Assembly: GCA_963823025.1 (NCBI GenBank)
Contig: CAWGKH010000021.1
Coordinates: forward strand, 17,955 to 81,954
Reading direction: 5' to 3'
Length of the DNA: 64,000 nucleotides
Origin: an uncultured Planctomycetota bacterium
GTDB taxonomy: Bacteria > Planctomycetota > UBA1135 > UBA2386
The notes beneath the pieces were generated by a model. It searched no databases. It saw only the letters and a list, made by a program, of their open reading frames with translations, and was not told the DNA's origin. This document shows, in pieces, positions 31,441 to 48,779 of the stretch (its first letter is position 1; every line of letters starts with the position of its first letter). The position numbers were made by a program, and so were the translations under genes.

Positions 31441-31616
31441 CCGGCGTTCCCCCGCGTGATGCGATCGTCCCCTCCGATCGCCACAGCCGGCGAATGCCCC
31501 CGCCGGCCCAGTCCCCTCAGCACAGATTCGACGGCACGGACCCGGCGATGGCGTCGGAACGCGTGTCGTTCCAGACCCCTTTTTCCGCAATCCCCGAGCC
31601 AGGGGGCCCCCTCTTG

Positions 31617-34511
31617 ATGAAGCTTGGAAGGTCCGTGTTGGCGGCCGCGATCGCCGGCGCCCTCCTCACCCTGACGGCGCCGGCCGGAGCGCAGGCCTCG
31701 AAGCCGGACAAGAAGCTCGAGCGCGACATCTCCTTCGTCCGCAAGCTCGCGACCGACCTCCGCTTCATCGGGCTCGCGCAGCAGGAAGTGGAGACGCTGA
31801 AGGCCTCGCACCGCGATTCGGCGGAGTTCAAGGAGGTCTTCCAGCTCGGGATCGAGATCGCGTTGATCGGCGCCCGCTCCCACCCGAACCGTGAGGAGCA
31901 GCGCACGCTGTTCAAAGAGGCTCTCGACCAGTCGCGCGAGTTCATCGACCGGTACGGGAACGACCCGGTCGCCGACCGCGCGCGGCTGACGCTGATCGAG
32001 GCGTGCTACGAGTACGGCAACTTCCTGACCGAGGAGATCGAGATCGCCCGGCAGGAGTCCCCCGACCGGGTCGCCGACCTCGAGGAAGCCGCTCAAAAGG
32101 TGTTCCGCGACGGCATCGAGGCGAGCGACACGGTGATGTCGAAGCTCGCCACTGCGAAGGACGAGCCCGGCTCGGACGCGCAGCGCGACTACTACCGGAC
32201 GTGGCTCTACAAGGCCATCCTCCAACGCGAGATGGCCCGGGCGGTCAAGCGCGACCGCGACGCACTCGCCGCGATCTCGCGCTCCACGTTCGAAGACCTG
32301 ATCCTCGACGTCGGTGAGGAGAGCCTGCTCGGGCTCCGCGCCTGGTTCGAGATGTCGAAGATCAACGAGGTCCTCGGCAACTACGACGGCGCCTTCTCCG
32401 ACTACAAGGACACCATCGACAGCATCCAGACCGCGCTCGATGACGCGCAGCAGCTCGGCTTGCGCCGCGACGCGCAGGAGGTGCTGTTCCAACTGATGCA
32501 GGAGGCCTACGACCGCGGCACGAACGCGCTGTTCACGCAGGGCAAGATCCAGGAGACCCTGCAGTTCATCGAGAAGTTCCGCAGCGACCTCCAGAAGTAC
32601 GGCGAGGAGGGCGCCGATCCGTTCGACATCGCGAGCCCGCAGTACGGGCATCCCGTGTTCCTCACACAGGCACGCGCGATGGCGGAGTCCGGCGATCCCG
32701 AGTCCGTCGCCCGTGCGCTCGAACTCGCGCAGAAGATCAACAGCGCGCACCCGAACGACATCGTCGGCATCAAGGCGAAGAACCTGATCCGCGACATCCT
32801 CGCGGTCCAGAGCAACCTCGTCAGCGGCGCGCTCCTGTACGAGGTCGCGAAGGGCGACTACCAGAACCGCGACTACGAGCGCGCGCTGAAGGAGTTCAAG
32901 CGCGCCTACGCGGCGATGACGCCCGAGGAGAAGACCAAGGACGGCCTCGAGCTGTGGACCTCGATGGGTCGCAGCTACGGGCTGCTCAACCGCTACCTCG
33001 AGGCGACGCTCGCCGCGTCGTACGGGCTGGAGCATCACGGCGACGACGCACCGGAGGAAGCACAGGTCGCCGCCGCGGACGTGCTCGAGAAGGCATGGCC
33101 GCTCTATCGCCGCGACACCAAGAACGATGACGCACCGCCGATCGAGCAGCTCGGTCAGCAGGTGAACGACCTGCTGAAGAAGTTCGGCGGCGAGGGCAGC
33201 GAGGCGAAGGCGCTCTGGCGTGAAGGCAACCGCCTCCTGCAGGAAGGCAAGTACGCGGAGGCCGCGGCGCGCTTCAAGAAGGTGCCCGCCGACACGGCCT
33301 ACCACGAGGTCGCGCAGGGCCGCATCGTCGTCGCCCTCGAGGTCGCCGGCGACTACAAGGCCGCGCGCCAGGCGATCGAGGACTACCGCACCTGGGTGAA
33401 GTCCCCCGAGGCGCAGCTCCCCGACGACCGCCGTGATCTCGTCGACAACCGGAAGCAGACGATCGCGACGATCGAGTTCTACGACGGCTACATGGACTAC
33501 AAGGAGGCGACCGGATTCGGCGACGAGAAGAAGGCCCAGCCGACGAGGTACGAGCCGACGATCCGGAAGCTCGAAGGCTGGCTCGACAAGTACGCCGCCG
33601 ACGGCCCGAACTACGTCGGTCGCTGCTACGACATGATCTCGCGGCTCTACGCGGCGCTCGGCCAGATCGACAAGGCGGAGGAGAACTACCGCACCCTGCG
33701 CCGGCTCGAGCCGAACAGCCCGCTCGTCCCGCTGCTCGCGACCCAGGTCTTCGCATCGCACTTCGAGCAGGTGAAGCGGCTCGAGGTCGAGCTCAAGGCG
33801 CTGCGCGAGAAGGGCGCGCCGGAGAGTGAGTGGAAGCCCGTCACGCAGAAGCTCGACGACGCTCGACGCGCCGCGATCGCGAGCGGCCTCGACTACATGC
33901 ACAACGCGGCCAACCCGCAGTACGGCGTGCTGTTCAACACGATGCTCCTCGCGCACGATCTGCAGGACTGGAAGACCGTCGAGGACGTCGGCCACAAGAT
34001 CGTCGAGCTCTACGCCGACTCGAAGGATGACGGCCCGAAGGTCGAGCAATGGGTCAACCCCATGCTCGGCGAGGCGCTCCTGCGGCAGCGCCGTTTCAAG
34101 GAGGCTGTCGAGCTGCTCGAGAAGGCCGCGAAGGCCAACCCGAACAACTACCCGGTGAAGCGCTACCTCGACCTCGCGCAGGGTGGCTGGTTCGAGTTCG
34201 ACTCGGCCGGCAACCTGGTCGAGGTCGCCGGACTGGACCAGCCGATCCCCGCCTACAACCGGCACTGGAACGAGTACAAGGTCTACGCGCTCAACCCCAA
34301 CCGCGGCGTCGATCAGTTCAGCCTCGACTGGTACCAGTTCTACCTCGAGTGCTACATGTTCGCGAAGCGGGCGGCGCGCAAGGACAGCAAGTACGCCGAC
34401 TACGCGAAGTCGCTCTACAACATCGCGCGGTCCACCGACGACTTCGCCACCCTCAAGAAGAAGGGTGACGAGGGGATGCGCATCTACGGCCTCTTCAACG
34501 CGATTCGGTGA
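31617..34511 (+). CDS. Large exported TPR/alpha-solenoid protein (about 964 aa)
   Basis: Signal peptide MKLGRSVLAAAIAGALLTLTAPAGAQ; all-helical with TPR-like units (e.g. LGEALLRQRRFKEAVELLEKAAKANPNN). Confidence 0.85.
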   Translation: MKLGRSVLAAAIAGALLTLTAPAGAQASKPDKKLERDISFVRKLATDLRFIGLAQQEVETLKASHRDSAEFKEVFQLGIEIALIGARSHPNREEQRTLFKEALDQSREFIDRYGNDPVADRARLTLIEACYEYGNFLTEEIEIARQESPDRVADLEEAAQKVFRDGIEASDTVMSKLATAKDEPGSDAQRDYYRTWLYKAILQREMARAVKRDRDALAAISRSTFEDLILDVGEESLLGLRAWFEMSKINEVLGNYDGAFSDYKDTIDSIQTALDDAQQLGLRRDAQEVLFQLMQEAYDRGTNALFTQGKIQETLQFIEKFRSDLQKYGEEGADPFDIASPQYGHPVFLTQARAMAESGDPESVARALELAQKINSAHPNDIVGIKAKNLIRDILAVQSNLVSGALLYEVAKGDYQNRDYERALKEFKRAYAAMTPEEKTKDGLELWTSMGRSYGLLNRYLEATLAASYGLEHHGDDAPEEAQVAAADVLEKAWPLYRRDTKNDDAPPIEQLGQQVNDLLKKFGGEGSEAKALWREGNRLLQEGKYAEAAARFKKVPADTAYHEVAQGRIVVALEVAGDYKAARQAIEDYRTWVKSPEAQLPDDRRDLVDNRKQTIATIEFYDGYMDYKEATGFGDEKKAQPTRYEPTIRKLEGWLDKYAADGPNYVGRCYDMISRLYAALGQIDKAEENYRTLRRLEPNSPLVPLLATQVFASHFEQVKRLEVELKALREKGAPESEWKPVTQKLDDARRAAIASGLDYMHNAANPQYGVLFNTMLLAHDLQDWKTVEDVGHKIVELYADSKDDGPKVEQWVNPMLGEALLRQRRFKEAVELLEKAAKANPNNYPVKRYLDLAQGGWFEFDSAGNLVEVAGLDQPIPAYNRHWNEYKVYALNPNRGVDQFSLDWYQFYLECYMFAKRAARKDSKYADYAKSLYNIARSTDDFATLKKKGDEGMRIYGLFNAIR

Positions 34512-34522
34512 GGAGCCCTTCG

Positions 34523-35677
34523 ATGACGCGACAGCAGAGAATCCAGATGAAGAACCAGATCGCGCTGTTCCTCGTGGCGAGCGTGCTCGGCACGGCCGTC
34601 GCGACGGCTCAGGACAAGATCAACGACGTCATCCAGACGACCCAGGGCCAGCGCATCCGCGGGGTGGAGGTCACGGCGACCACCAGCAAGACGATCAGCT
34701 ACACAAAGGGCGAGGAGTCCAGCGATCTCCCCGCGACGCGGCTGCTGGACATCGTCTGGTCGGATCCGCCGGAGGAGTACGCGCTGGCGCGTGCCGCGCT
34801 CCGCAACGCTGACTTCGCGACGGCCGCCAACATGTTCACGGAGGCCGCCAACAAGACCAAGCGCGAGCCGCTCGAGGCCGAGTGTCGCTACCAGGCCGCG
34901 GCCGCGCTCGTGCGCGGTGCGGGCACCGACACCGCGAAATCGCAGGAAGCGGTGAAGAGCCTCAACGACTGGCTCGCGAAGTGGCCCGACGGCTACCGTG
35001 CGCCAGACGCACAGCTGATGCTCGGACGAGCCTACGTCGCGGCCGGCGATCCGGCGCAGGCGCAGACGACCTTCAAGAAGTTGTCGGACGACACGCTGAA
35101 GAACGGCTGGGCGCCCATCTGGAACGCTCGCGCGCGCTTCGAGCTCGCTCGCGCGCTGCTCGCGGCTGGCGACTTCGACGGGGCGCGGAACGCGTTCCGG
35201 GCCGCGTCCTCCGCGGCCGACACCGCCGCCGGCCAGGACGGGTCCTCGGAGGAGATCGTCTCGCTCCGCGCGGACGCCGCGGTCGGGATCGGCGAGACGA
35301 TGGTCCGCGAGGGCAAGTTCGAGGACGCGCTCGCCTACTTCCAGGACCTCGTCCATCAGGCCAAGAGCGACGCGATCCGCGCTGCGGCGAAGGCGGGTCA
35401 AGGCGAAGCGCTGTTCCTCAAGGCGCAGAAGGCCGGCACGGTCGACGGACTCCGCGAGGCACAGATCGCCCTTGCCGAGGCCGGCATGCTCGACAGCACC
35501 GCGGGCGAGACGACCGCGAAGGCGCTCTACTACTCGGGCGAGGTCCTGCTCGCGCTCGGCCCCGACCACGAGGCGTCGACCTACAAGCAACGCGCGGCGG
35601 ACTACTTCCAGTCGGTGGTGAAGAACTTCCCGAACACCGTCTGGGCGCCGAAGGCCGCGGAGGCGGCCCGGCAGTGA
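34523..35677 (+). CDS. Exported TPR protein (outer-membrane-assembly/CpoB-like repeats)
   Basis: Signal peptide ending ATAQ, DVIQTTQGQRIRG beta domain, TPRs, C-terminal FQSVVKNFPNTVWAPKA. Start is 34523 or 34547. Confidence 0.82.
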   Translation: MTRQQRIQMKNQIALFLVASVLGTAVATAQDKINDVIQTTQGQRIRGVEVTATTSKTISYTKGEESSDLPATRLLDIVWSDPPEEYALARAALRNADFATAANMFTEAANKTKREPLEAECRYQAAAALVRGAGTDTAKSQEAVKSLNDWLAKWPDGYRAPDAQLMLGRAYVAAGDPAQAQTTFKKLSDDTLKNGWAPIWNARARFELARALLAAGDFDGARNAFRAASSAADTAAGQDGSSEEIVSLRADAAVGIGETMVREGKFEDALAYFQDLVHQAKSDAIRAAAKAGQGEALFLKAQKAGTVDGLREAQIALAEAGMLDSTAGETTAKALYYSGEVLLALGPDHEASTYKQRAADYFQSVVKNFPNTVWAPKAAEAARQ

Positions 35678-35853
35678 AGCACACCACGAGCGCCTCGGGC
35701 ATGCGACTCGAGACCTCGGAAACCACGGTTTTCGGCGGCGAGGGGCTTTCGCTCGGCGCTGCCGTTGCGGACACTCCTCCGGCCCTGTTCGGTTCGAACC
35801 CCTCCCACGGGCACGCCCCCCGCCCGTCAACCCCTGCAAGACACAGACGGCTC

Positions 35854-36585
35854 ATGTTGCGGATCCAGAACCCCCTCCGCGCCGCTCTCCCGGCGCTGAT
35901 GCCCCTCTTCGTGGCCTCGGTCGCGTTCGCTCAGGACAAAGGCGAGGCGCCGCTGACCGCTCCGAATCCGGTCGCCGAAGCCTTCCGGAACGCCGGCGTC
36001 ATCGGCTACGTCATCGTCGGTCTGTCGATCGTCGCGGTCGCGCTGATCATCGAGAACTTCGTCGCGATCAAGCGCGACAAGCTCGCCCCGCCCGACGTCA
36101 TCGACGAGTTGGAGGCCCTGTTCGAGGAAGAGAACTTCCAGGAGGCGATGGACCTCTGTGAGAGCGAGCGCGTCTACCTGACCAACGTCGTCCAGGCCGG
36201 ACTCTCGAAGCTCGGCCACTCGTTCGACACGATCCAGCAGGCCGTGCGCGAGATGGAGGAGGAAGAGACCGTCAAGCTCTTCCAGAAGATCGGCTGGCTC
36301 AGCCTGATCGCCGCGTCGGCGCCGATGCTCGGTCTGCTCGGCACGGTGACCGGTATGTTCGTGACGTTCGGCCAGATCGCACTGGCCGGCGGCTCGGTCA
36401 GCCCGGCCCAGCTCGCCGGTGGTATCAAGCTGGCCCTCGTGACGACCATCTTCGGTCTGATCGTGGCCCTGCCGACCGGCGCGTTCTTCTTCACGTTCCG
36501 CAACAAGGTGGTGCGGACCGCGATCGAGGTCAACGCGATCGCCGAAGACCTGTTCGAGCGCTTCCGCACCGCGAACAAGGGCTGA
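35854..36585 (+). CDS. MotA/TolQ/ExbB proton-channel protein
   Basis: APMLGLLGTVTGM and GGIKLALVTTIFGLIVALP motifs; N-terminal signal-like extension ending AFAQ. Confidence 0.95.
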   Translation: MLRIQNPLRAALPALMPLFVASVAFAQDKGEAPLTAPNPVAEAFRNAGVIGYVIVGLSIVAVALIIENFVAIKRDKLAPPDVIDELEALFEEENFQEAMDLCESERVYLTNVVQAGLSKLGHSFDTIQQAVREMEEEETVKLFQKIGWLSLIAASAPMLGLLGTVTGMFVTFGQIALAGGSVSPAQLAGGIKLALVTTIFGLIVALPTGAFFFTFRNKVVRTAIEVNAIAEDLFERFRTANKG

Positions 36586-36725
36586 TGCCTGGACCCGTCG
36601 CGTCCCTTCCCCCGAACCAGCCGGCGGCGATGAACCCCCCGGTGGGTCTGATCGTTGCGTGAGGGCTCGGCCGGGCGACCCCCCCCCCGGCCGCGCCGAC
36701 ACCACCCGACACCGAGACAGACGAC

Positions 36726-37253
36726 ATGTCAACGCAGTCCGAACGAGCGCAGCAGGAAGTGGAGCTGGACATGACGCCCATGATCGACTGCGTCTTCCTG
36801 CTGATGATCTTCTTCGTGCTGGTCATCGACCTGAGCCAGAAGAACCTCGAAGACCTGATCCTGCCGAAGGCGAAGTACGCGGTGCCGGACGAGAATCCGC
36901 CCGATGTGCGCCCGATCATCAACATCACGCAGGACGGGCACATGGTCTACAAGGGCAACACCTACTACGACCCGGCCCAGAAGGACAATATCAGCGGCTT
37001 GAAACAGATGCTCGTCGAGTGGAAGCGCGACCTCCCGCTCAAGAAGGAGCCGCAGAACATCGGCGGCCACATGGTCGAGCTCGTCAACGACCCGGTCCTC
37101 GTGCGCGCCGACAAGTGGACTGAATGGCACTACGTCGGCGTGTTCATGACCGCTTGCAGCCAGCCCGAGGCCGCGTTCTGGAAGCTCGAGCTGGCGATGT
37201 CGGAGAAGGACAAGGAAGAGCAGATGCTCAGGGGGCGGGGTATCGGCAACTGA
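36726..37253 (+). CDS. ExbD/TolR family protein 1
   Basis: LDMTPMIDCVFLLMIFF with the conserved TM Asp; PVLVRADKWTEW. Confidence 0.93.
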   Translation: MSTQSERAQQEVELDMTPMIDCVFLLMIFFVLVIDLSQKNLEDLILPKAKYAVPDENPPDVRPIINITQDGHMVYKGNTYYDPAQKDNISGLKQMLVEWKRDLPLKKEPQNIGGHMVELVNDPVLVRADKWTEWHYVGVFMTACSQPEAAFWKLELAMSEKDKEEQMLRGRGIGN

Positions 37254-37272
37254 CCCGTTCCCGCCGTTCAGT

Positions 37273-37300
37273 GAGCCTCTGAGCAGGAGCCTCTGAGCAG
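37273..37300. repeat. Exact 14-bp tandem duplication (GAGCCTCTGAGCAG x2)
   Basis: Read directly between ExbD1 and ExbD2. Confidence 0.9.
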
Positions 37301-37342
37301 GCGCCCCCGACCGACGAACGAAACAGCGCGAGAGACGAATCG

Positions 37343-37873
37343 ATGGCCAGCCACCTGAAAGACGCCGAAGAGGAAGCCAAGCCGGACATGACGCCGATGA
37401 TCGACGCCGTGTTCCTGCTGATCATCTTCTTCCTGTGCATCGACTTCAAAACGCTCGAAGCGAAGCTGCCTGCGTATCTGCCGAAGGACAAGGGCTCGCA
37501 GGCGACGTCGTCGCCGCCGGTCGAGCAGCTCTCCCTCAAGATCCTCAACGACGAGTGGGGCCGGGAAGTGCCGCGCATTCCGGGCAAGGCCAAGCCGTTC
37601 GCGCTGATCGGCCACAAGGTCCACTGGCTGCTCGGCCCGAAGAAGTTCACCGAGCTGACCGAGCTCGTCGATGAGCTCGAGCGCATCGCGAGCGACCCGC
37701 GCCAGCGCGTCCCGGACGACAAGAATCCGGGCCGCATGAAGAAGAAGCCGATCGTGATCGAGCCGCAGCCAGGCGCCACCTACGGCGACGTCGCGACGAC
37801 GGTCGACGCCGTGACCAAGGCCGGCTTCGAGGAGATCAACTTCGGCGGCGGACGCGGCACGCGTCAGCAGTAG
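37343..37873 (+). CDS. ExbD/TolR family protein 2
   Basis: PDMTPMIDAVFLLIIFF; YGDVATTVDAVTKAGFEEINF. Confidence 0.93.
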   Translation: MASHLKDAEEEAKPDMTPMIDAVFLLIIFFLCIDFKTLEAKLPAYLPKDKGSQATSSPPVEQLSLKILNDEWGREVPRIPGKAKPFALIGHKVHWLLGPKKFTELTELVDELERIASDPRQRVPDDKNPGRMKKKPIVIEPQPGATYGDVATTVDAVTKAGFEEINFGGGRGTRQQ

Positions 37874-37875
37874 CC

Positions 37876-37935
37876 TGGCCGCGTCCGCGGTCGCTTGGCC
37901 GCGTCCGCGGTAGTCGGGCCGCGCCCGCGGTGAGC
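37876..37935. repeat. Three 20-bp tandem units, each with an internal palindrome CCGCG-nn-CGCGG
   Basis: tggccgcgtccgcggtcgct / tggccgcgtccgcggtagtc / gggccgcgcccgcggtgagc. Confidence 0.85.
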
Positions 37936-38069
37936 GGTCCGCGCGGCGCCCGTCGCGCGCGCGGTGCGCACGCACGACGATCCGCGGAAGGCCTCGTCGT
38001 TGAACCGGGCGCCGCTCGCCCGCGTTCTCGACGCGCCCCCATCCCGTATGGCTCGCCCGGGGACGCGCG

Positions 38070-38600
38070 ATGACGACACCGGTTTCGGCATCGGAGCACG
38101 CCGCGAAGGCCGACACCACGCCGATGATCGACGCGGTGTTCCTGCTGATCGTGTTCTTCCTCTGCCTCGACTTCCGCACGCTGGAGTCGAAACTGGCCGC
38201 CTACCTGCCTCGCGACTCGGGTGGTGGCGTCGACATGCCGCTCCCGGTGGAGCCGCTCACCGTCGCGGTCATCGTCGACGACTGGGGAACGGCGGTGCCG
38301 CGGCTCTCCGGTCGGGAGCAACCCTTCGCGCTGGTCGGTCACCGGATCCACTGGCGCCTCGGTGCGAAGCGATTCGCCGAGCTCCGGGACCTGGTCGACC
38401 AGCTCGCGCGCCTCGCGCGGGACCCGCACCAGCGCGTACCCGACCTCGCGATACCCGGCCGCAGCAAGCAGCGGCCGGTCGTCATCGAGCCCTGGCCCGG
38501 CGCCACCTATGGCGACGTCGCGACGACGGTCGACGCGGTGAGGCAGGCCGGATTCGACGAGATCCAGTTCGGCGGCGGTCGCGGCGCGCGCCAGCGGTGA
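38070..38600 (+). CDS. ExbD/TolR family protein 3 (close paralogue of protein 2)
   Basis: TPMIDAVFLLIVFF; same length (176 aa) as 37343..37873 and shares PGATYGDVATTVDAV and FGGGRG with it. Confidence 0.92.
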   Translation: MTTPVSASEHAAKADTTPMIDAVFLLIVFFLCLDFRTLESKLAAYLPRDSGGGVDMPLPVEPLTVAVIVDDWGTAVPRLSGREQPFALVGHRIHWRLGAKRFAELRDLVDQLARLARDPHQRVPDLAIPGRSKQRPVVIEPWPGATYGDVATTVDAVRQAGFDEIQFGGGRGARQR

Positions 38601-38986
38601 GCGGGCCTCGCCGAGCTCGGGAGGTTCACCCGCACGCCGAGCGGCCCCCGCCCGACCCGGGATCGCAGCCTCCCTCGCCGACGCGGCGTCCGGCCGCAAC
38701 CAGAGGGGCACGCCCACTTTCGGAGGTCGCGCCCCGCGGCGATCGGCCGCGCCTTCGTGTCGAACAAGGTCTGGCATCGGGCCGCTGCCACGGCTAGCTT
38801 GTCGCGACACCTGGACGGGATCCCTCCCCCGCCCCTCGCTGACCCCCCCCCCTTCCCTGCCGATGCCGATCGCCGTCTCGCTCGCCCGAGTGACCCGGTC
38901 CTCGCGCCGCGCAGGGTCGCCCGAAATCGACCCGCGCTCGCCCGGTTCGCCACGCTCCGGACGTGCCCTGAACGACACAGGCTGAG

Positions 38987-41599
38987 ATGACTTTCGAACC
39001 CCGTCGTCTTCTCGCAGGAGCCCTGCCTGTCCTGTTCCTCTGCGTCACCGCGTGCTCCGCTCCGGAGTCCGCGGCTCGCTCGTCGGAGGACAACGCGCCG
39101 ATGGCGAACGAGCCGTCCGCGGACCATGCGAACGAGCCGTCCACCGCTGCCGGCGCGACGCAGGAGCCACAGGATCAGGGTGTTCCCGATCAGGTGCGCC
39201 AGGAGCGCAACAAGCTGCTCGTCGAGCAGTACCTCTCCAACGCCGACCGCCTGCGTCGCCAAGGGGACGAGGCGTCGCTGGAGGCTGCGCGCATCGAGCT
39301 GCTGAAGGCCCAGTCGATCGCACCGAGCGATCCGCGCGTGCAGCACCTGCTCGAGCAGGTCGCCACCGAGCTGAACCTCCCGGCCGCGACGCCGGAGACG
39401 TTCGCCGAGGTGCAGGCCCAGCAGCAGAAGATCCACGAGCAGCGCCGGAAGGCCGAAGTGCGTTCACTGCTCGACCAGGGTCAGCAGGCACTCGCGGACA
39501 ACGACTTCCGCACCGCGATCGACGACTTCCGTCGCGCGGTGTTGAACGTCGAAGTCGGTCGCTACGTCGCGTGGGGGGATCTCGACCCACGCGCGCACGA
39601 ACTGCTCGACAAGGCGACCAAGGCGCGCGACGCCGCCGAGGCGGAAGCCACCGCGGCCGCACGTCGCCAGGCTGCGCAGCAGCGTCGCGAGGCCGAGCAG
39701 GCCGACCAGGCGCGCCGCCGCGCGCGCGTCGACGGCCTGATGGCGCAGGCGAGTCGGGCGTTCGAGCGCAAGCAGTTCGCGCTGTCGCGTGACCTCGCCT
39801 TCCAGGCGATGACGGTCGAGCCCAACAACCAGATGGCGCGCGACCTGCACAATGCCGCGATCAAGGCGGCGCGCGAGACGCGCACCGACGAGTACTACCG
39901 CCAGATGGCCACCTCCATCCGTCGGATGAAGGAGGAGGCCGAGAGCTTGCGCATCCCGCAGACCGACATCCTCTGGGTCGATCAGCAGGTCTGGGACAAG
40001 GCGCTGCACCGCTCGGTGCCGAAGAGCTCGGGTGCGACGCTCGATCCCGACAACCAGGCGCTGCGCAAGCAGCTCGGGGAAGCGACGATCAGCGGCCTGA
40101 CGTTCACCGAGGAGGACGGCGCCTACGGGGACGTCGTGCGGCGCGTCTCCACGATCACGAACATCCCGATGATCATCACGCCCGAGGCGCGCGAGACGAT
40201 CGACAGCGAGGACCTCCGGTTGGCGATGGACGTGACCGCGCCGATCTCGGTGCAGAACTTCCTCAACCAGATGGTCTCGCGCAGCGCGGAGCTGGCGTGG
40301 ATCGTCCAGAACGGGGTCGTCGAGATCACGACGAAGGCCAAGGCCGGCGGCGCGAACTACCTCGACGAGAAGGACGTTCGCGACCTCGTGTTCCCGAAGA
40401 CGGTGTTCCTGCCGCCGACGATCCGCGACATCCCGAACGGTGAGGACACCGGCGGCGCCCCGCGCACCGGTGGCGAAGGCGAGGACAAGACGTTCTTCGT
40501 CGAGCTCGACACCCTGGTCGCGAACATCAAGGACGCGACCGACCCGAACTACTGGGACAGCGAGGGCGGTGGCAGCATCGACCAGGCGGAGTCCGGGTAC
40601 CTGCTCGTCACCGCCAACCCGGACATGCAGGCGCGCGTCGACAAGATCCTGGACGACCTCCGGCGATTCGCGACGACGGTCGTGACGATCGAATCCAAGT
40701 TCCTGCAGATCACGCAGAACTTCCTGCAGCAGATCGGCGTCGACTTCCGCGGCCTTGGCGGCTCGGGGTCGAAGGGCACGGTCGCCCAGCTCGACGACGT
40801 CACGAACGGCCTCAACGACAACGCGTCGCGCGGCCTCGACAACTCGGGCACCCAGGACCCGGCAGCCAGCCCGATCGCCGGCGCGTTCTACAACGACGGT
40901 GGCGACGGCGACGTCCGCGCACGCAGTGAGAACTTCTTCACGAACTCACTCGGTCGCGCGCTCAGCACCAACGGTGGCGCGACCGCCGCGATCGTGTTCC
41001 TGAACGACCTCCAGATCCAGGCGATCATCCGCGCCGTGGAGAAGAAGGAAGACGTCCAGGAGCTGAACGGCCAGAACCTGACCGTGCTCAACAACGAACG
41101 CGGTCACGTCGCGATCATCAACCAGACCGCCTACGTCCGTGACTTCAACGTCGAGGTGGCCCAGGCGGCCTTCATCGCCGACCCGGTCATCGACGTGATC
41201 CAGGACGGCGTCGTGCTCGATGTCCGGCCGACGATCAGCTTCGACCGCAAGCGCATCACGCTCGACATGCAGCCGACCGTCGCCGACCTGGTGCGGCCGA
41301 TCGCGACCTTCTCGACGTCGCTCGCCGGCACGACCCAGCCGGTCACGCTGCAGCTCCCGCAGCTCCTCGTGCGCTCGTTCGCGACGACCGTCGAGGTGCC
41401 GGACGGCGCCTCGGTGCTGATCGGCGGCCTCCGCACGGTGAGCAACAAGGAGCGTCGCGCGCAGATCCCCATCCTCGCCGACATCCCGCTGATCGCGTTC
41501 TTCTTCAAGGAGGAAGGCGTGTCCGACGAGAACAGCTCGCTGATGGTGATGGTCCGCGCGACGATCACGGACGTCAAAGACGTGATGGACAACCGCTGA
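38987..41599 (+). CDS. Lipoprotein secretin 2 with N-terminal TPR/coiled-coil region
   Basis: Lipobox VTAC; VVTIESKFLQI, LTVLNNERG, DGVVLDVRPTISFDRKRITLDMQP, TTVEVPDGASVLIGG, IPILADIPLIAFFF. Confidence 0.92.
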   Translation: MTFEPRRLLAGALPVLFLCVTACSAPESAARSSEDNAPMANEPSADHANEPSTAAGATQEPQDQGVPDQVRQERNKLLVEQYLSNADRLRRQGDEASLEAARIELLKAQSIAPSDPRVQHLLEQVATELNLPAATPETFAEVQAQQQKIHEQRRKAEVRSLLDQGQQALADNDFRTAIDDFRRAVLNVEVGRYVAWGDLDPRAHELLDKATKARDAAEAEATAAARRQAAQQRREAEQADQARRRARVDGLMAQASRAFERKQFALSRDLAFQAMTVEPNNQMARDLHNAAIKAARETRTDEYYRQMATSIRRMKEEAESLRIPQTDILWVDQQVWDKALHRSVPKSSGATLDPDNQALRKQLGEATISGLTFTEEDGAYGDVVRRVSTITNIPMIITPEARETIDSEDLRLAMDVTAPISVQNFLNQMVSRSAELAWIVQNGVVEITTKAKAGGANYLDEKDVRDLVFPKTVFLPPTIRDIPNGEDTGGAPRTGGEGEDKTFFVELDTLVANIKDATDPNYWDSEGGGSIDQAESGYLLVTANPDMQARVDKILDDLRRFATTVVTIESKFLQITQNFLQQIGVDFRGLGGSGSKGTVAQLDDVTNGLNDNASRGLDNSGTQDPAASPIAGAFYNDGGDGDVRARSENFFTNSLGRALSTNGGATAAIVFLNDLQIQAIIRAVEKKEDVQELNGQNLTVLNNERGHVAIINQTAYVRDFNVEVAQAAFIADPVIDVIQDGVVLDVRPTISFDRKRITLDMQPTVADLVRPIATFSTSLAGTTQPVTLQLPQLLVRSFATTVEVPDGASVLIGGLRTVSNKERRAQIPILADIPLIAFFFKEEGVSDENSSLMVMVRATITDVKDVMDNR

Positions 41600-41947: not shown

Positions 41948-42679
41948 GTGCCCCGCCCGCTCGACGCGATCTTCTTCGACATCGACGACACCCTGTTCTC
42001 CACATCGGTGTTCGCCGACAAGGCACGGCGTGCCGCGGTGGACGCGATGATCGGAGTCGGGTTGCGCTCATCCCGCGAGGAGTGCTTCCGCGAGCTCACC
42101 GAGGTCGTGCACGAGTTCAGCAGCAACTACGGCAGCCACTTCGACAAGCTGATCGAACGACTGCCCATCGAAGCGAGCGCGGGCCTGAACAAGGACATCC
42201 TCGTCGCTGCCGGAGTCGTCGCCTACCACGAGACGAAGTGGCGCGAGCTGAAGGTCTACGACGACGTCTACGAGGTCCTCGAGTGGCTCGCCGGCCATAC
42301 CCTGCTGCGCGGCATCATCTCGGCGGGGCTCGGCATCAAGCAGGCGGAGAAGGTCATCCGGCTGAAGATCTACGAGTTCCTGACGCCCGGGGCGATCTTC
42401 TTCACCGAGCAGATCGGCATCAGCAAGCCGAACCCGAAGCTCTATCGCCGCGTGCTGCGTGAGCTGGGGTTGGAGCCGGAGCGCGTGATGTACGTCGGGG
42501 ACAATCCGGTGAACGACGTCGATCCGGCCAACGCAGTGGGCCTCGTGACCGTGCACAACCGGCGATCCGGACGACACGCGAAGCTCGAGGGCAAGAGCCG
42601 GCCGGACTTCGAGATCTCGACGTTCTACGACCTGCGGGACGTCCTGCAGGGCGAGTTCGCGCTGACCGCCACTTCGTGA
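41948..42679 (+). CDS. HAD-superfamily hydrolase, subfamily IA
   Basis: FFDIDDTL motif I, ISKPNP motif III, YVGDNPVNDV motif IV. Confidence 0.93.
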   Translation: MPRPLDAIFFDIDDTLFSTSVFADKARRAAVDAMIGVGLRSSREECFRELTEVVHEFSSNYGSHFDKLIERLPIEASAGLNKDILVAAGVVAYHETKWRELKVYDDVYEVLEWLAGHTLLRGIISAGLGIKQAEKVIRLKIYEFLTPGAIFFTEQIGISKPNPKLYRRVLRELGLEPERVMYVGDNPVNDVDPANAVGLVTVHNRRSGRHAKLEGKSRPDFEISTFYDLRDVLQGEFALTATS

Positions 42680-42703
42680 GCAAACGCGCCCGCGGGAGCC
42701 GCC

Positions 42704-43801
42704 CTACTTGAGCTGCTCCCAGTACTCCTCGGGCATGTCGTGCGCGATCTTCAGCGCCCCGTTGGCGCCGCCGTAGATCGGCTCCTCGACCCGCACCACC
42801 TTGCCGCCCCCGAGGTCCCGCTGCATCGCTGCCTCGATCGCCGAGTCGAGTCCCTTGATCATCGACCCGCCGCCGGCGAGCAGCACCCGGTTCCGCAGCT
42901 TGTGCTGGAACTCCGGATCGAAGGAGCTGATGAGGTCGTTCAGCCCTTGCACGATCGGGTCGATCAGGATGGTGCACGCCTCCTTGATCTGGTCGGTCAT
43001 GTCGAACTCGGTCGGCTTGCCCTTGACCGGCAGCGTGACCTTCACGCGCTCGAGCGGGTCGCCGAGGTACGAGTGGCGCTCCTTGATGTCCTTGACCATC
43101 TGGATCGTGAACTGCGCCTCCGGGAAGTCGCGTTGGATGAGCGACGCCAACTTCTCGTCGACGGAATCGCCGGCGACGCGGAGGGTGAGCTGATCGGACT
43201 CCTCCGGCATCGTGCCGTGCATCCGACAGAGGTCGGCGGTGCCGGCACCGATGTCGATCACCAGCGCGTCCTCGAGCATGTCGAGCCCGTACGCGACCGC
43301 GAACGGCTCCGAGCACAGCATCACCGAGTCGACCGTCTCGCGAGCCGCCTCGATGATGGCCTCCTTGTTCTGGATCGAGGCCTGTGCGGGCGCGCCGATC
43401 ACCGCGTAGACGAGCTCGTCCTTGCGGGGACGCACCCGTTGGATCGCCTCCCGGATCAGATCACGGGCGGCACGCTCGACTTCCTTGCGCTCGTTCTCGT
43501 CGCCGTCGCTGTAGCGCAGCACGCCTTTCTCGAGCGGCTTGAACATCTTGAGGGAAAGTCGCTTCTCGACGGCTTCCTTGCCGAACAGCACGTCCTTGCC
43601 GAGCAGCTTCCGGCTCACCACGTCCTTCGGGTAGCCGACGACCGAGAACACCGTCTCACGAACGCCGTTGCTGGCCGACACGGACGTGCGCGATGTGCCG
43701 AGATCCATGCCGATGTAGAGGACGCCGTGGTCCTTCTTCTCGGATGCCGGTTCGTCCTTCGGCGCTTCCTTGCTGTCGGTCTTCGGGGTGTCGTCGTTCA
43801 T
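42704..43801 (-). CDS. MamK-like bacterial actin
   Basis: Actin-fold motifs GMDLGTS, SEPFAVAYG, IDIGAGTAD, LAGGGS, plus MamK-type stretches SVVGYPKDVVSRKLLG, GTMPEESDQLTL and C-terminal MPEEYWEQL (compared from memory with magnetospirillum MamK). Confidence 0.88.
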   Translation of the reverse strand: MNDDTPKTDSKEAPKDEPASEKKDHGVLYIGMDLGTSRTSVSASNGVRETVFSVVGYPKDVVSRKLLGKDVLFGKEAVEKRLSLKMFKPLEKGVLRYSDGDENERKEVERAARDLIREAIQRVRPRKDELVYAVIGAPAQASIQNKEAIIEAARETVDSVMLCSEPFAVAYGLDMLEDALVIDIGAGTADLCRMHGTMPEESDQLTLRVAGDSVDEKLASLIQRDFPEAQFTIQMVKDIKERHSYLGDPLERVKVTLPVKGKPTEFDMTDQIKEACTILIDPIVQGLNDLISSFDPEFQHKLRNRVLLAGGGSMIKGLDSAIEAAMQRDLGGGKVVRVEEPIYGGANGALKIAHDMPEEYWEQLK

Positions 43802-43824
43802 CGTGTCTCCGTTGAGGCGAGGTG

Positions 43825-44586
43825 TCAGGGTTTCTTCTGCAGCTTCAAGTTGGCTTGGAAGATGTCGGCCATCAGGGCCCGCTTCTGCTCAGCCTTGGCT
43901 TCGGCGGTGTCGAGGCCTTGCACTTCACGGTAGATGGAGGCGATGCCGGGATCGATGCCTTTGCGCCGCGCGACCTGACCGAGCTCCTGCTCGGCGTCCG
44001 CGAGCGACCGGTTGAGCTTGTCGATCCGGCGTTGCAGGACGGCGATCTCCGAGTCGCGGGCCGCACCGCGCTCGGCCGAGGCCGCGGCGCGTTCCTGCTC
44101 GACGACCGACATGACCAGCTCCTCGAGCCGCTCCTGCATCGAGAGGGCTTCCGCCCCGCCGAGCGGGAGCGTCTCGACGACGGTCCGGATCGTCGCGACG
44201 ATCCGCGCGTCCTCGCGGGCGTAGTCCACTGACCGCTGCGCCCGGGCTTCCTCGAGGCGCTCCTCGAGTTGCTGCTGCAGGCGCTGATGCTCGAGCCGCA
44301 GGGCGTTCGCCTCCTCCTCCGCCCGCGAGTGCGCCGCCTTCAGCTCCTCGTTGCTCTTCAGGAGCCGCAGGAACTCTTCCTTCGTCGCGTCGGCGACCTG
44401 GTACCGCTCGGTGGCCAGCAATCGGTGGCGAAGCGTCCGATGCACCGCCTCGTCGATCAGTGCGACGATGCGATCCAGCCCGATGACGTTGACCTTCTGG
44501 ACGCCGCGCTTCTTGAGCTGATCGACCGACGTCTTGTAGGCGAGTCGGCGAACGGCATCTCTCAGGCTCTGGCGAAAGGTCGACAC
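43825..44586 (-). CDS. Coiled-coil protein of unknown function
   Basis: E/R/L/Q-rich heptads, no TM or signal peptide; conserved-looking ends (KTSVDQLKKRGVQKVNVIGLDRI; GIDPGIASIYREVQGL...IFQANLKLQ). GTG start is inferred. Confidence 0.75.
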   Translation of the reverse strand: MSTFRQSLRDAVRRLAYKTSVDQLKKRGVQKVNVIGLDRIVALIDEAVHRTLRHRLLATERYQVADATKEEFLRLLKSNEELKAAHSRAEEEANALRLEHQRLQQQLEERLEEARAQRSVDYAREDARIVATIRTVVETLPLGGAEALSMQERLEELVMSVVEQERAAASAERGAARDSEIAVLQRRIDKLNRSLADAEQELGQVARRKGIDPGIASIYREVQGLDTAEAKAEQKRALMADIFQANLKLQKKP

Positions 44587-44599
44587 GTTCGATGCGCTC

Positions 44600-45388
44600 T
44601 CACCGTTCGTCCCGGCCCCGATAGGCGAACCGAGGGTCGTTGTCGGGATCGGCGCCCCGAACCTCGGTGACGAACACGCCGAGCACGTTGGCGCCGAGGT
44701 CCTGCAGCGTGCGGATCGCATCGCGGGTCAGGGTCTTCGGCGAATACTCGAGCCGGACCGTCACGAGCGTCCCGTCCGCGCGCGCGGCCGCGACGCCGGC
44801 ATCGGTCGCCGGCAGGATCGGCGGCGTGTCGATCAGCACGTAGCGGAACTCCTCCTTGAGGCGGCTCAGGAGCTCGTCCACGCGCGGCGCCGAGATCACC
44901 TCCGAGGGCGCCGCGAGTCGCGTACCCGCGCCGAGCACCCAGAGGTTGCGGATGCCCGACTGGCGGAGCGCGCCGGCGAGCGGCACCCGCTCCATCAACA
45001 CGTCACCGAGGCCCGCGTGCGGGTTGAGGTGCAGGTAGTCCTCGACGGAAGGCGACCGTAGATCGCCGTCCACGAGCAGGATCCGCGACCGCTCCAACTC
45101 GGCGAACGCCAGCGCCAGGTTGATCGCCGTGATGGTCTTGCCCTCACCCTTCACCGCCGAGGTGATGACGAGCGATTTGGCCTCGCCATCGGGGTTGAGG
45201 GCCATCAGCTGGTTGCGGAGCGCCCGGAACTGCTCGGCGCGGTAGCTGGTCGGCTCGTGGAACACGACCAGGTACGGATTCACGGCGCGGTCGACGACGA
45301 CCAACACGTCGTCGTCGAACGCATCCAGCCCGGCCACCATCTCGGGTTCGCCGGACGCGTCGTCTTTCCGCTTGCGGAATCGGGTCAA
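44600..45388 (-). CDS. CpsD/CapB-family (BY-kinase-like) P-loop protein without a Tyr cluster
   Basis: AEQFRALRNQL, Walker A ITSAVKGEGKT, A' LVDGDLR, Walker B VLIDTPP. TTG start is inferred. Confidence 0.88.
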   Translation of the reverse strand: MTRFRKRKDDASGEPEMVAGLDAFDDDVLVVVDRAVNPYLVVFHEPTSYRAEQFRALRNQLMALNPDGEAKSLVITSAVKGEGKTITAINLALAFAELERSRILLVDGDLRSPSVEDYLHLNPHAGLGDVLMERVPLAGALRQSGIRNLWVLGAGTRLAAPSEVISAPRVDELLSRLKEEFRYVLIDTPPILPATDAGVAAARADGTLVTVRLEYSPKTLTRDAIRTLQDLGANVLGVFVTEVRGADPDNDPRFAYRGRDER

Positions 45389-45542
45389 GTCGCGCTCCTC
45401 GTCTCGGTCGCCCACGAGACTGCGGGTCCCGTCTGTGTATCGACGGCCCGATCGGAGCGGCTGGAGCGCCCGCCTCCCGGGGTGGCCGAGCCGGTCACCA
45501 AAGCCGCTCCGCGGGTCCTCCGCAAGGGGATTCCGAACTGCC

Positions 45543-47213
<1,671 letters not shown>

Positions 47214-47250: not shown

Positions 47251-48779
47251 TCACTTCAGTGGGCCGCAGATCGCCTCGACCGCACGCAGGAGCTCGCCGG
47301 AGGAGACGAGCTGCTCGGCGGCGCGCAGATCCGGCGCGAGGAAGCGATCCTCGGTCAGTGGCGGCACGACCTCGCGGATCGCCGCGTACGCCGCCTCGAC
47401 GCCCCGTCCGGGGCGCAGCGGTTCGCCGCAATCGAGTCCGGCGGCGGCGCTGATCAGCTCGATCGCGAGGACGCGCGCGGTGTTCTGCACGACCTGCGCC
47501 GCGTGCCGCGCCGCGGTCACGCCCATCGAGACGTGGTCCTCGCGGTTCGCCGACGTCGGGATCGTGTCGACGCTCGCCGGATGGGCGAGCGTCTTGTTCT
47601 CCGAGGCCAGCGCCGCGGCCACGACCTGCTGGATCATCAGCCCGCTCTCGACGCCCGGATCCGCGGCGAGGAATGGCGGCAGCCCGGAGATGTCCGGGTT
47701 GACGAGGTTCTCGGTGCGGCGCTCGCTGATGTTCGCCAGCGTGGCGACGGCGATCTTCAGGTAGTCGAGCGCCTGGCTGACCGGCTGGCCGTGGAAGTTG
47801 CCGGCCGAGACCACGTCGCCGTTCGGGAACACCAGCGGGTTGTCGGTGACCGAGCTCGCCTCGGTCTCGAGCACGCCGCGCACGAACGCCGAGCGCGTCC
47901 TTGGCCGCGCCGTGCACCTGCGGCGCGCAGCGCAGCGAGTAGGCGTCCTGCACCTTTCCGCAGCCGGCGTGGCTCGGGATGATCCGCGAGCCGCGCAGCA
48001 GCGAGCGGAGGTTGGCCGCGGTCCGCTGCTGGCCCGGGTGCGGGCGCACCTCGTGCACCGCGCGGCGGAACGGACCGGGCCGAGCCCCTCAGCGCCTCGA
48101 GGGTGGTCGCGCACGCCACGTCCGACGTGCGGCTCAGGATCGTCGCGCGGTGCAGCGTGACCAGGCCGATCGCGGTCATGATCTGCGTGCCGTTGATCAG
48201 CGCGAGCCCCTCCTTCGCCGAGAGCTCGACCGGCGCGAGACCGACGCGCGCGAGCGCGCGCTTCGACGGCATCGCCTTGCCGTCGAAGAACACCTCGCCC
48301 TCGCCGATCAGCGGCAGCGCCATGTGGGCGAGCGGGGCGAGGTCGCCCGATGCTCCGACCGAGCCCTGCGACGGGATCCACGGCACGATGCCAGCGTTGA
48401 ACATCGCGATCATCGCGTCGACGAGCCCGGTCCGGACCCCCGAGCACCCGCGCGCGATCGCGTGGATACGCAGCGCGAACGCCAGACGGCTGACGTCGAC
48501 CGGCAGCGGGTCGCCGACCCCGGTCGCGTGCGAGAGCAGGAGGTTGCGCTGCAACGTCCCGAGCTTCGCGAGCGGGACGTTCACGCTCGCGAGCTTGCCG
48601 AAGCCGGTGTTGACGCCGTAGACGACGCGGCCCTCGTCGATCGTCGCCTCGACGACGCGCCGCGAGGCGGCGATCCCGCGGCGCGCGTCAGCCGGGAGGC
48701 TCACGCGCGCGTCCGGCAGGGACAGCGAGATCCAGGTGTCGAGCGGGTGGTTCTTCGTGCCGAGGGGGATGGGAGTCAT
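47251..48779 (-). CDS. hutH: Histidine ammonia-lyase with two +1 frame breaks (near 48074 and 47890)
   Basis: YGVNTGFG and the MIO motif [11 protein letters not shown] in the first frame; RPHPGQ...[15 protein letters not shown] in the second; TDNPLVF...GNFHGQP...[11 protein letters not shown] in the third. Confidence 0.93.

Follow-up and report, generated by a model that had tools for sequence, protein, structure and literature searches.

Three minus-strand genes at positions 42704 to 45388 of a 64,000-nucleotide stretch of DNA from an uncultured Planctomycetota bacterium (the window; contig CAWGKH010000021.1 of assembly GCA_963823025.1) encode a P-loop ATPase of the bacterial tyrosine kinase (BY-kinase) type, a coiled-coil protein referred to here as the adaptor, and an actin of the MamK family. 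The comparative and modelling evidence leans, by a small measure, towards a chromosomal, vertically inherited Planctomycetota cytoskeletal operon, in which the adaptor would dock in a cleft of a saltatorellin-type actin and the ATPase would act through the N-terminal domain of the adaptor. The conserved core of the locus is the adaptor-actin pair. The actin family and its non-magnetosome form are already known; in the literature searched, no description of the two accompanying proteins was found. The genes, and the parts of the adaptor that were distinguished, are as follows.

44600..45388, minus strand: BY-kinase-type P-loop ATPase, soluble, 262 amino acids (aa); TIGR01007, AAA_31 and relatives in the PDB
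43825..44586, minus strand: coiled-coil adaptor, 253 aa; no Pfam or NCBIfam family, all-helical by AlphaFold2
44422..44586, minus strand: adaptor N-terminal domain, residues 1-55; three short helices by AlphaFold2, co-occurs with the ATPase
43960..44409, minus strand: adaptor long helical hairpin (coiled coil), residues 60-209; by AlphaFold2
43828..44109, minus strand: adaptor C-terminal conserved module, residues 160-253; by conserved columns, profile search and complex prediction
43834..43896, minus strand: adaptor terminal amphipathic helix, residues 231-251; predicted actin-binding element
42704..43801, minus strand: MamK-family actin-like protein, saltatorellin type, 365 aa; NF040964 and MamK in the PDB

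In the list of open reading frames (ORFs), the actin occupies 42704-43801 (365 aa), and the other two genes appear in maximal form as 43825-44721 and 44600-45622; the coiled-coil and ATPase frames overlap solely in these longest forms. In the sequence, the ATPase is read as starting with the TTG at 45388, which GAGGAG precedes by 6 nt, and the coiled-coil gene with the GTG at 44586, giving proteins of 262 and 253 aa, respectively. Both choices agree with where the orthologues begin in the alignments. They leave gaps of 13 bp between ATPase and adaptor (44587-44599) and 23 bp between adaptor and actin (43802-43824), reproducing the tight spacing given in an earlier note that was made without database searches. 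The maximal ATPase frame would overlap the end of the neighbouring hutU gene; with the start at 45388, hutU (which ends at 45543) therefore falls outside the ATPase gene.

The actin and its adaptor

Family-model and PDB scores, standing in for a tree of named sequences, were used to place the actin with MamK or with MreB. The protein scored 420 bits against the NCBIfam MamK model NF040964 (cut-off 400), as opposed to 63-74 bits against MreB models (cut-offs 293-366), 221.8 bits against the BeeR model (cut-off 530) and 15.6 bits against the ParM model (cut-off 417). Among solved chains, MamK was matched at 265 bits, 8r2n at 146 and MreB at no more than 51, and the MamK match spans actin residues 26-364, the C-terminal tail included. 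An actin of MamK rather than MreB type, as the earlier note had proposed, is thus borne out. Residues of the phosphate-1, phosphate-2 and adenosine motifs are invariant among 40 orthologues.

Over its full length, the actin is 68% identical to a gene of Saltatorellus ferox Poly30 (locus L093), and the related loci come from this organism and from metagenome-assembled genomes of Planctomycetota. The S. ferox protein was described as a MamK-like actin and named saltatorellin in a 2019 preprint (bioRxiv 10.1101/817700, available in part), and therefore the actin itself is known. According to the available part of that preprint, an mCherry fusion of saltatorellin forms filaments in Escherichia coli and in Magnetospirillum gryphiswaldense, and a shape-shifting role is proposed for the protein (bioRxiv 10.1101/817700). 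Judging from its family and from this orthologue, the copy in the window would be expected to form filaments as well. Such actins are common: a MamK-family match above the cut-off was found in 34 of 41 genomes (the window's own and 40 relatives from its family or order), and among 151 Planctomycetota genomes sampled evenly (the phylum sample), 54 had an actin match at E<=1e-40, 41 of these genomes having one above the cut-off. Two MamK-family paralogues are present in several Planctomycetota genomes (G033, G040, G061, G116, G184 and others), and upstream of each paralogue lies a separate module gene.

A locus survey covered the best 80 of 229 contig matches, of which 72 loci had at least 2000 nt upstream; in 69 of these 72, the gene immediately upstream of the actin, in the same orientation, is an adaptor homologue. 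A hidden Markov model (HMM) of the adaptor's C-terminal module detected it in 114 of 115 loci, the single exception having an upstream flank of 3 nt. Similarly, the module was found in 40 genomes of the phylum sample, all of them among the 54 that are actin-positive, and in none of the 97 that are actin-negative. By comparison of coordinates, 43 of 50 module matches are less than 1.5 kb upstream of the actin match and on the same strand.

The adaptor matched no family in Pfam or NCBIfam. Its 276 homologues are all annotated as hypothetical, and those with names are from Planctomycetota. The AlphaFold2 model built from alignment A5 is all-helical, with a predicted local distance difference test score (pLDDT) of 78.8; an earlier model from alignment A1, in which head types were mixed, was poorer, with a pLDDT of about 50 at the N-terminus. 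Helices 2-15, 21-26 and 37-54 make up the N-terminal domain, and helices 60-117, 122-138 and 144-209, with pLDDT mostly 77-94, form the hairpin. The coiled-coil character is read from two AlphaFold2 models, in which the paired segments are 58-139 with 144-208 and 60-138 with 144-209. Residues 212-223 are poorly modelled and are followed by a terminal helix at about 231-251. A Foldseek search of the model against the PDB gave nothing at E<=0.001 and generic helical proteins at most, and a search of the ESM Atlas gave a best score of 0.87, to generic coiled-coil clusters.

Invariant and near-invariant columns of the adaptor are concentrated in its last 90 or so residues. A profile of this C-terminal module, run against 1.84 billion cluster representatives, matched 950 of them at E<=0.001, including 799 at E<=1e-10. 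Of the 150 representatives listed, which range from 93 to 507 aa, nearly all have the module ending no more than about 20 residues before the C-terminus; the exceptions include P0243 and P0238.

Complex prediction was performed with the actin (alignment A2) and adaptor residues 150-253 (alignment A1), modelling of trio members having been suggested in the earlier note. This pair passed, with a median score of 0.72 (runs of 0.69, 0.72 and 0.77) against 0.01 for the best control. In a benchmark, 58 of 80 solved complexes and 2 of 110 mismatched pairs reach the mark used, counts that apply roughly here because our own alignments were used. The pLDDT of the partner was at least 63 and contact agreement between runs at least 68%. 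The confidently predicted contacts are between residues 231-250 of the adaptor and residues 143-150, 160-163, 171-176, 196-198 and 352-364 of the actin. Among 40 orthologues, 15 of the 21 actin interface residues are conserved at 90% or more, compared with 185 of 365 in the whole protein, and hydrophobic positions of the adaptor's terminal helix are 78-100% conserved. The last helix of the adaptor is thereby predicted to dock on conserved residues of the actin. The contact site would correspond to the cleft between subdomains IA and IIA together with the conserved C-terminal tail; the contacted residues are presumed, by residue numbering, to be those of the target-binding cleft of eukaryotic actin. 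ParR binds ParM, and WH2 motifs bind eukaryotic actin, at the equivalent site.

The ATPase and its link to the adaptor

With 117.9 bits (cut-off 108.05), the ATPase passed TIGR01007, a BY-kinase domain model, and it also matched Pfam AAA_31. Among solved structures, it comes closest to CapA/CapB chimeras (99-104 bits), followed by BceF, VpsO, Wzc and Etk; MinD reaches 40 bits. The MinD models gave about 40 bits (cut-offs 202-213) and the ParA partition model 26 (cut-off 180), so that the protein falls outside the MinD and ParA families proper. Across 30 orthologues, Walker A, A' and B are conserved, as are the ExxRxxR positions; E52, R55 and R58 are invariant (alignment A3), and ExxRxxR is also present in 13 of 13 relatives of the divergent type described below. 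ExxRxxR is the motif through which BY-kinases oligomerise into rings. The tail has a single tyrosine, in a column occupied by tyrosine in 25 of the 30 orthologues, and no cluster. Linked ATPases of other lineages have two to four tyrosines in their last 30 residues, and some have none.

The BY-kinase-type identity, the lack of a C-terminal tyrosine cluster in the window's copy and the lack of an adjacent Wzz-type activator or polysaccharide genes, all put forward in the earlier note, agree with these scores, with the tail as read here and with the neighbours scanned, among which no fused or adjacent polysaccharide co-polymerase (PCP)/Wzz activator in a polysaccharide locus was found. Its description of the BY-kinase as an orphan was too strong: one tail tyrosine is kept, relatives have clusters, and two PCP-like genes are present elsewhere in the genome. 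The first of these (C11:794621-796222, locus L119) is a 533-aa ORF with 20.9-24.5 bits to Wzz (cut-off 25.5), adjoining a Wzy_C protein, a near-threshold Poly_export protein, and RmlD and a dehydratase (rml-type sugar genes). The second (C16:155214-156992, locus L120) is a 592-aa frame with weak, sub-threshold matches to Wzz and GNVR.

The full trio, with the ATPase upstream of the adaptor, is present in 48 of the 72 surveyed loci. In the remaining loci no ATPase was found within 6 kb; these include S. ferox, where a PMT_2 glycosyltransferase and a UbiA family protein lie upstream. In the phylum sample, the best stand-alone ATPase matches adjoin the adaptor-actin pair in 17 of the 54 actin-positive genomes. 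In four of these, from the window's family, the genes are co-directional, and in the other 13, from six other families, the ATPase is divergent, at a spacing from the adaptor of about 150-250 bp as estimated from tblastn coordinates. The earlier note had raised conservation of the trio as a check. The trio is conserved in 48 of 72 loci and, in divergent form, in 13 genomes, but the core is the adaptor-actin pair, and loci of the Saltatorellus type are without the ATPase. As a separate observation, two genomes of one family (G169:C68:199-810 and G184:C50:47466-48083) have a 1236-1655-aa frame with a BY-kinase domain about 8 kb from the adaptor-actin genes, on the opposite strand.

An HMM of the first 80 residues of the adaptor was trained on 46 co-directional loci and compared with ATPase occurrence: both were present in 79 loci and neither in 32, with the domain only in two and the ATPase only in one. 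These three exceptions are two loci with less than 800 nt of flank (domain only) and one fragmentary adaptor ORF. Additionally, the domain was detected in 13 of 13 divergent loci, none of which was in the training set.

Further heads are found on the same C-terminal module. Among 151 module representatives, five full-length proteins and two fragments have a BY-kinase-like domain fused to it. Against the ATPase profile, the fused domain reaches 62-91 bits; its Walker A is degenerate, and the ExxRxxR helix is absent. These fusion proteins (P0217, P0184, P0236, P0230 and P0161) are without the long coiled coil, and P0230 is named a MinD-like ATPase by the Joint Genome Institute. At ATPase-less loci, the module protein often starts with a GGDEF domain, which was above the Pfam cut-off in 2 of 10 representatives scanned (P0247 and P0142) and in 7 of 13 ORFs tested, one of these being the second module gene that follows the S. 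ferox actin. Certain module proteins, of 160-190 aa, are short and have no head that could be recognised. In one family (L116-L118, from G050, G086 and G132), the module ends frames of 670-765 aa upstream of the actin, and one such frame matched no Pfam family. The S. ferox locus itself (L093, 4987-13078) consists of the short module protein, the actin, a DUF3810 gene that overlaps the actin stop, a 1201-aa DUF7133/HEAT/cytochrome c protein and the GGDEF-module protein, an order that recurs in L082, L085 and L096.

The architecture of filament, adaptor and ATPase that the earlier note had suggested is supported by the complex prediction, by the co-occurrence of domain and ATPase, and by the natural fusions. 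The positioning or shape role that the note attached to it is a candidate function, as are budding and the placement of envelope machinery. A working model can be drawn from it. The terminal helix of the adaptor would dock on polymerising MamK-family actin, and the ATPase would work through a putative contact with the N-terminal domain of the adaptor. The adaptor would thereby tether the ATPase, which keeps the BY-kinase ring residues and perhaps autophosphorylates its single tail tyrosine, to actin monomers or filament ends. The nucleotide or phosphorylation state of the ATPase may then decide where or when filaments grow, or their attachment. In sister lineages, where it lies behind GGDEF domains or is fused directly to the degenerate BY-kinase-like domain, the module would serve as a plug. 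We infer adaptor-actin binding, ATPase or kinase activity, and the contact between the ATPase and the N-terminal domain.

Several points weigh against the operon reading as a whole or against its parts. The ATPase is not obligatory, because it is missing in 21 of 69 adaptor-actin loci, S. ferox among them, and in family f10, from the window's own order, the best ATPase matches and the actin are on different contigs. On a tree of 110 actins (FastTree, midpoint root), ATPase presence requires five changes, of which three come from truncated loci, so that the co-occurrence of domain and ATPase rests on about two real transitions. Signalling by a kinase is uncertain because there is one tail tyrosine here and none in some linked relatives, and the two kinase-less PCP-like ORFs are possible conventional partners of the ATPase. 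The complex score is a measure of model confidence, and the pass may partly reflect likeness, because helix-in-cleft actin complexes have been solved. Finally, the cleft was mapped by offset from the phosphate-2 motif (residue 183) and by actin residue numbering, rather than from coordinates.

A wider version of the operon reading can be put forward tentatively, and we regard it as possible, at a good deal less than even chances. According to it, actin control in the phylum is modular: a ParR/WH2-like helix would bring interchangeable heads (BY-kinase, pseudo-kinase or GGDEF) to the growing-end cleft of MamK-type filaments, and tyrosine phosphorylation or cyclic di-GMP would set filament dynamics, driving shape change or budding, or positioning envelope or polysaccharide machinery. 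To our knowledge, Planctomycetota lack FtsZ.

Alternative readings and gene surroundings

The ATPase could be an ordinary split polysaccharide-export BY-kinase of the Firmicutes-like kind, serving membrane PCP/Wzz-like proteins encoded elsewhere; its linkage to the actin would then have no direct mechanism, or would at most position polysaccharide export. The protein is above the cut-off of the BY-kinase domain model, the solved structures nearest to it are those of capsule and exopolysaccharide kinases, tyrosine clusters are kept in linked relatives, and it is the sole BY-kinase-like match at E<=1e-30 in a genome with two kinase-less PCP-like ORFs, on C11 and C16. Because of these last two observations, the ATPase may have a conventional polysaccharide role or a dual role. 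However, the linkage to the adaptor-actin pair survives a change of orientation across seven families, a dedicated adaptor domain co-occurs with the ATPase, BY-kinase-like domains are fused to the predicted actin-binding module, the ORFs scanned near the ATPase included no Wzz or polysaccharide gene, and the PCP-like matches are below the Pfam cut-offs. We therefore consider a purely conventional kinase unlikely. It is less probable still that the adaptor does not bind the cleft at all, its terminal helix targeting a membrane or the protein being a general coiled-coil scaffold that shares the operon. From the alignment, the terminal helix is amphipathic with basic ends, as are the membrane-targeting helices of MinD and FtsA; segment 212-223 of the module is poorly modelled in the monomer, and a strictly conserved motif just ahead of the terminal helix is outside the confident contacts. 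Against this stand the passed complex prediction, with controls at or below 0.01, the conservation of the contacted actin residues, and the restriction of the module to actin-bearing genomes (40 of 54, versus 0 of 97).

A cassette for DNA segregation like ParMRC, or a part of a mobile element, would also pair an actin with an adaptor whose C-terminal helix enters the actin cleft, which is the mode of ParR on ParM. This is very improbable: no iterated centromere-like repeats were found, weak two- or three-copy matches only, all of them inside coding sequence; the adaptor model has only helices and no recognisable DNA-binding fold, nor a Foldseek match at E<=0.001; the ParM score is far below its cut-off; the locus lies among housekeeping genes (hutU, hutH, BamA and DnaB), is syntenic across many genomes and has a G+C content like its surroundings; and PADLOC assigned no defence family to any of the three proteins. 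It is scarcely credible that the locus is what remains of a magnetosome gene cluster, or a scattered part of one. The actin passes the MamK family model, and the introduction of one paper (PMC12748827, available in part) cites metagenomic studies as suggesting possible magnetotactic members of the Planctomycetes. The window's genome (5.1 Mb in 22 contigs, 80% complete) was searched for magnetosome markers, however, and none reached its cut-off. MamP gave at best 28.8 bits (cut-off 300) and MamQ 55.3 (cut-off 250), and MamI and the magnetochrome domain had no match, which is weak evidence because no control genome gave a match to either. A MamK in the functional sense, the organiser of a magnetosome chain, would be encoded with mam or mad genes in a magnetotactic organism; here these four markers stayed below their cut-offs, and the neighbours are unrelated genes. 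Moreover, the actin is common both among relatives (34 of 41) and in the phylum sample (54 of 151), and S. ferox is cultured, its actin being reported without magnetosome context in the available part of the preprint (bioRxiv 10.1101/817700). The earlier note had treated a magnetosome island elsewhere in the genome as a possible explanation, and at the completeness stated there was no sign of one. Its observation of a MamK-like actin without magnetosome genes is true, but such actins had already been published as saltatorellin and are widespread. MreB above the cut-off and MreC were likewise not found in this genome; an MreB-like second match occurs in the majority of relatives, a single-contig genome from the window's family among them, and the blank is attributed to the missing fifth of the genome.

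Around the locus, the neighbours are genes for a HAD hydrolase, a secretin, ExbB/ExbD, hutU, hutH, BamA and DnaB, and the G+C content of the locus resembles that of its surroundings (about 70%). No mam, mreC/D, Wzz or polysaccharide genes were found among the large ORFs scanned over about 31.5-58 kb of the window, in line with the earlier note as to mam and mreCD. One further feature lies between the hutU stop (45543) and the ATPase start.

45453..45511, no strand: imperfect inverted repeat, 24-nt arms, 75% complementary, 11 nt apart

This repeat may be a hutU terminator or an operator, and its membership in the unit is not claimed. A consensus terminator scan gave no match at 45453-45511, and consensus promoter and terminator scans of 42400-45800 gave none, which is weakly informative at such a G+C content. 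The hutH gene is split into overlapping minus-strand frames at 47251-48779 of the window: 47757-48779 covers Lyase_aromatic positions 12-239 and 47251-48447 covers positions 284-466, pointing to a frameshift, a pseudogene or an assembly error. A plus-strand run at 31494-41599 encodes a TPR protein (1005 aa), an ExbB-like and three ExbD-like proteins, and an 870-aa secretin whose N-terminal half is long and coiled or of low complexity.

Comparison with known systems

The closest known system is saltatorellin of S. ferox. It shares with the window's locus the actin family, the C-terminal tail and an adaptor-module gene directly upstream. Magnetosome context is likewise lacking, according to the available part of the preprint (bioRxiv 10.1101/817700). 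In contrast, the S. ferox copy is in a sister clade without the ATPase in the actin tree, its upstream module protein is short, and a second, GGDEF-headed copy of the module lies downstream. The words operon, tyrosine and coiled are absent from the main text of the preprint, its supplements being outside coverage (bioRxiv 10.1101/817700). In the literature searched, which left most subscription journals outside coverage, no description was found of the adaptor family, of its predicted cleft-binding helix, of coupling between a BY-kinase-type ATPase and an actin, or of GGDEF or pseudo-kinase heads. The same silence on the adaptor, on BY-kinase-type coupling and on alternative heads extends to the available parts of PMC11032199 and PMC10653835.

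MamK with MamJ and MamY, and MamK or Mad28 with Mad proteins, likewise combine a MamK-family actin with non-enzymatic partners. In Desulfovibrio magneticus RS-1, a coiled-coil network interacts with actins in two-hybrid assays (PMC12748827, available in part). The locus differs from this magnetoskeleton in that no magnetosome genes were found in the window's genome at the cut-offs, and no BY-kinase-type ATPase is described there in the available part of that paper (PMC12748827). The adaptor is set apart from MamJ and the Mad proteins by its lack of a Pfam or NCBIfam family, and not by direct sequence comparison.

ParM-ParR-parC, which Gayathri et al. in 2012 reportedly described in plasmid segregation, resembles the locus in having an adaptor whose C-terminal helix lies on the cleft side of the actin, a placement that is predicted here, the cleft itself being assigned by position. 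Here, in contrast, there are no centromere repeats, the context is chromosomal and housekeeping, the actin is of MamK type, and the other end of the adaptor is an ATPase-associated or GGDEF head rather than a DNA-binding domain. With CapB, CpsD, Wzc and Etk, which are among or close to its best solved relatives, the ATPase shares Walker A, A' and B and ExxRxxR; it differs from them in being soluble and stand-alone, with one tail tyrosine, no adjacent PCP/Wzz protein, and an actin and an adaptor as conserved neighbours. The closest analogy in function is CpsD, which has reportedly been linked to ParB and the cell cycle.

The window's actin scores 222 bits against the BeeR cut-off of 530 and 146 bits to 8r2n, which we take to be BeeR, although the record title does not say so. 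Both are MamK-related actins of non-magnetotactic bacteria of the Planctomycetes-Verrucomicrobia-Chlamydiae group, BeeR coming from Verrucomicrobiota and forming three-stranded tubular filaments (PMC11929497, available in part). The words operon and neighb are absent from the available text of that paper (PMC11929497).

To the question of what MamK-like actins do outside magnetotactic bacteria, which concerns saltatorellin and BeeR alike, the present locus adds first candidate partners: a widespread adaptor family with a short predicted actin-binding helix, and heads of the BY-kinase and GGDEF types. A BY-kinase fold wired to an actin instead of a PCP would, if true, be a new use of this enzyme family. 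Similarly, a ParR/WH2-like cleft-binding helix on a chromosomal bacterial actin would, if true, extend a principle known from plasmids and eukaryotes. Among the systems compared, the locus is a conserved filament-adaptor-ATPase unit and a variant of actin-adaptor systems.

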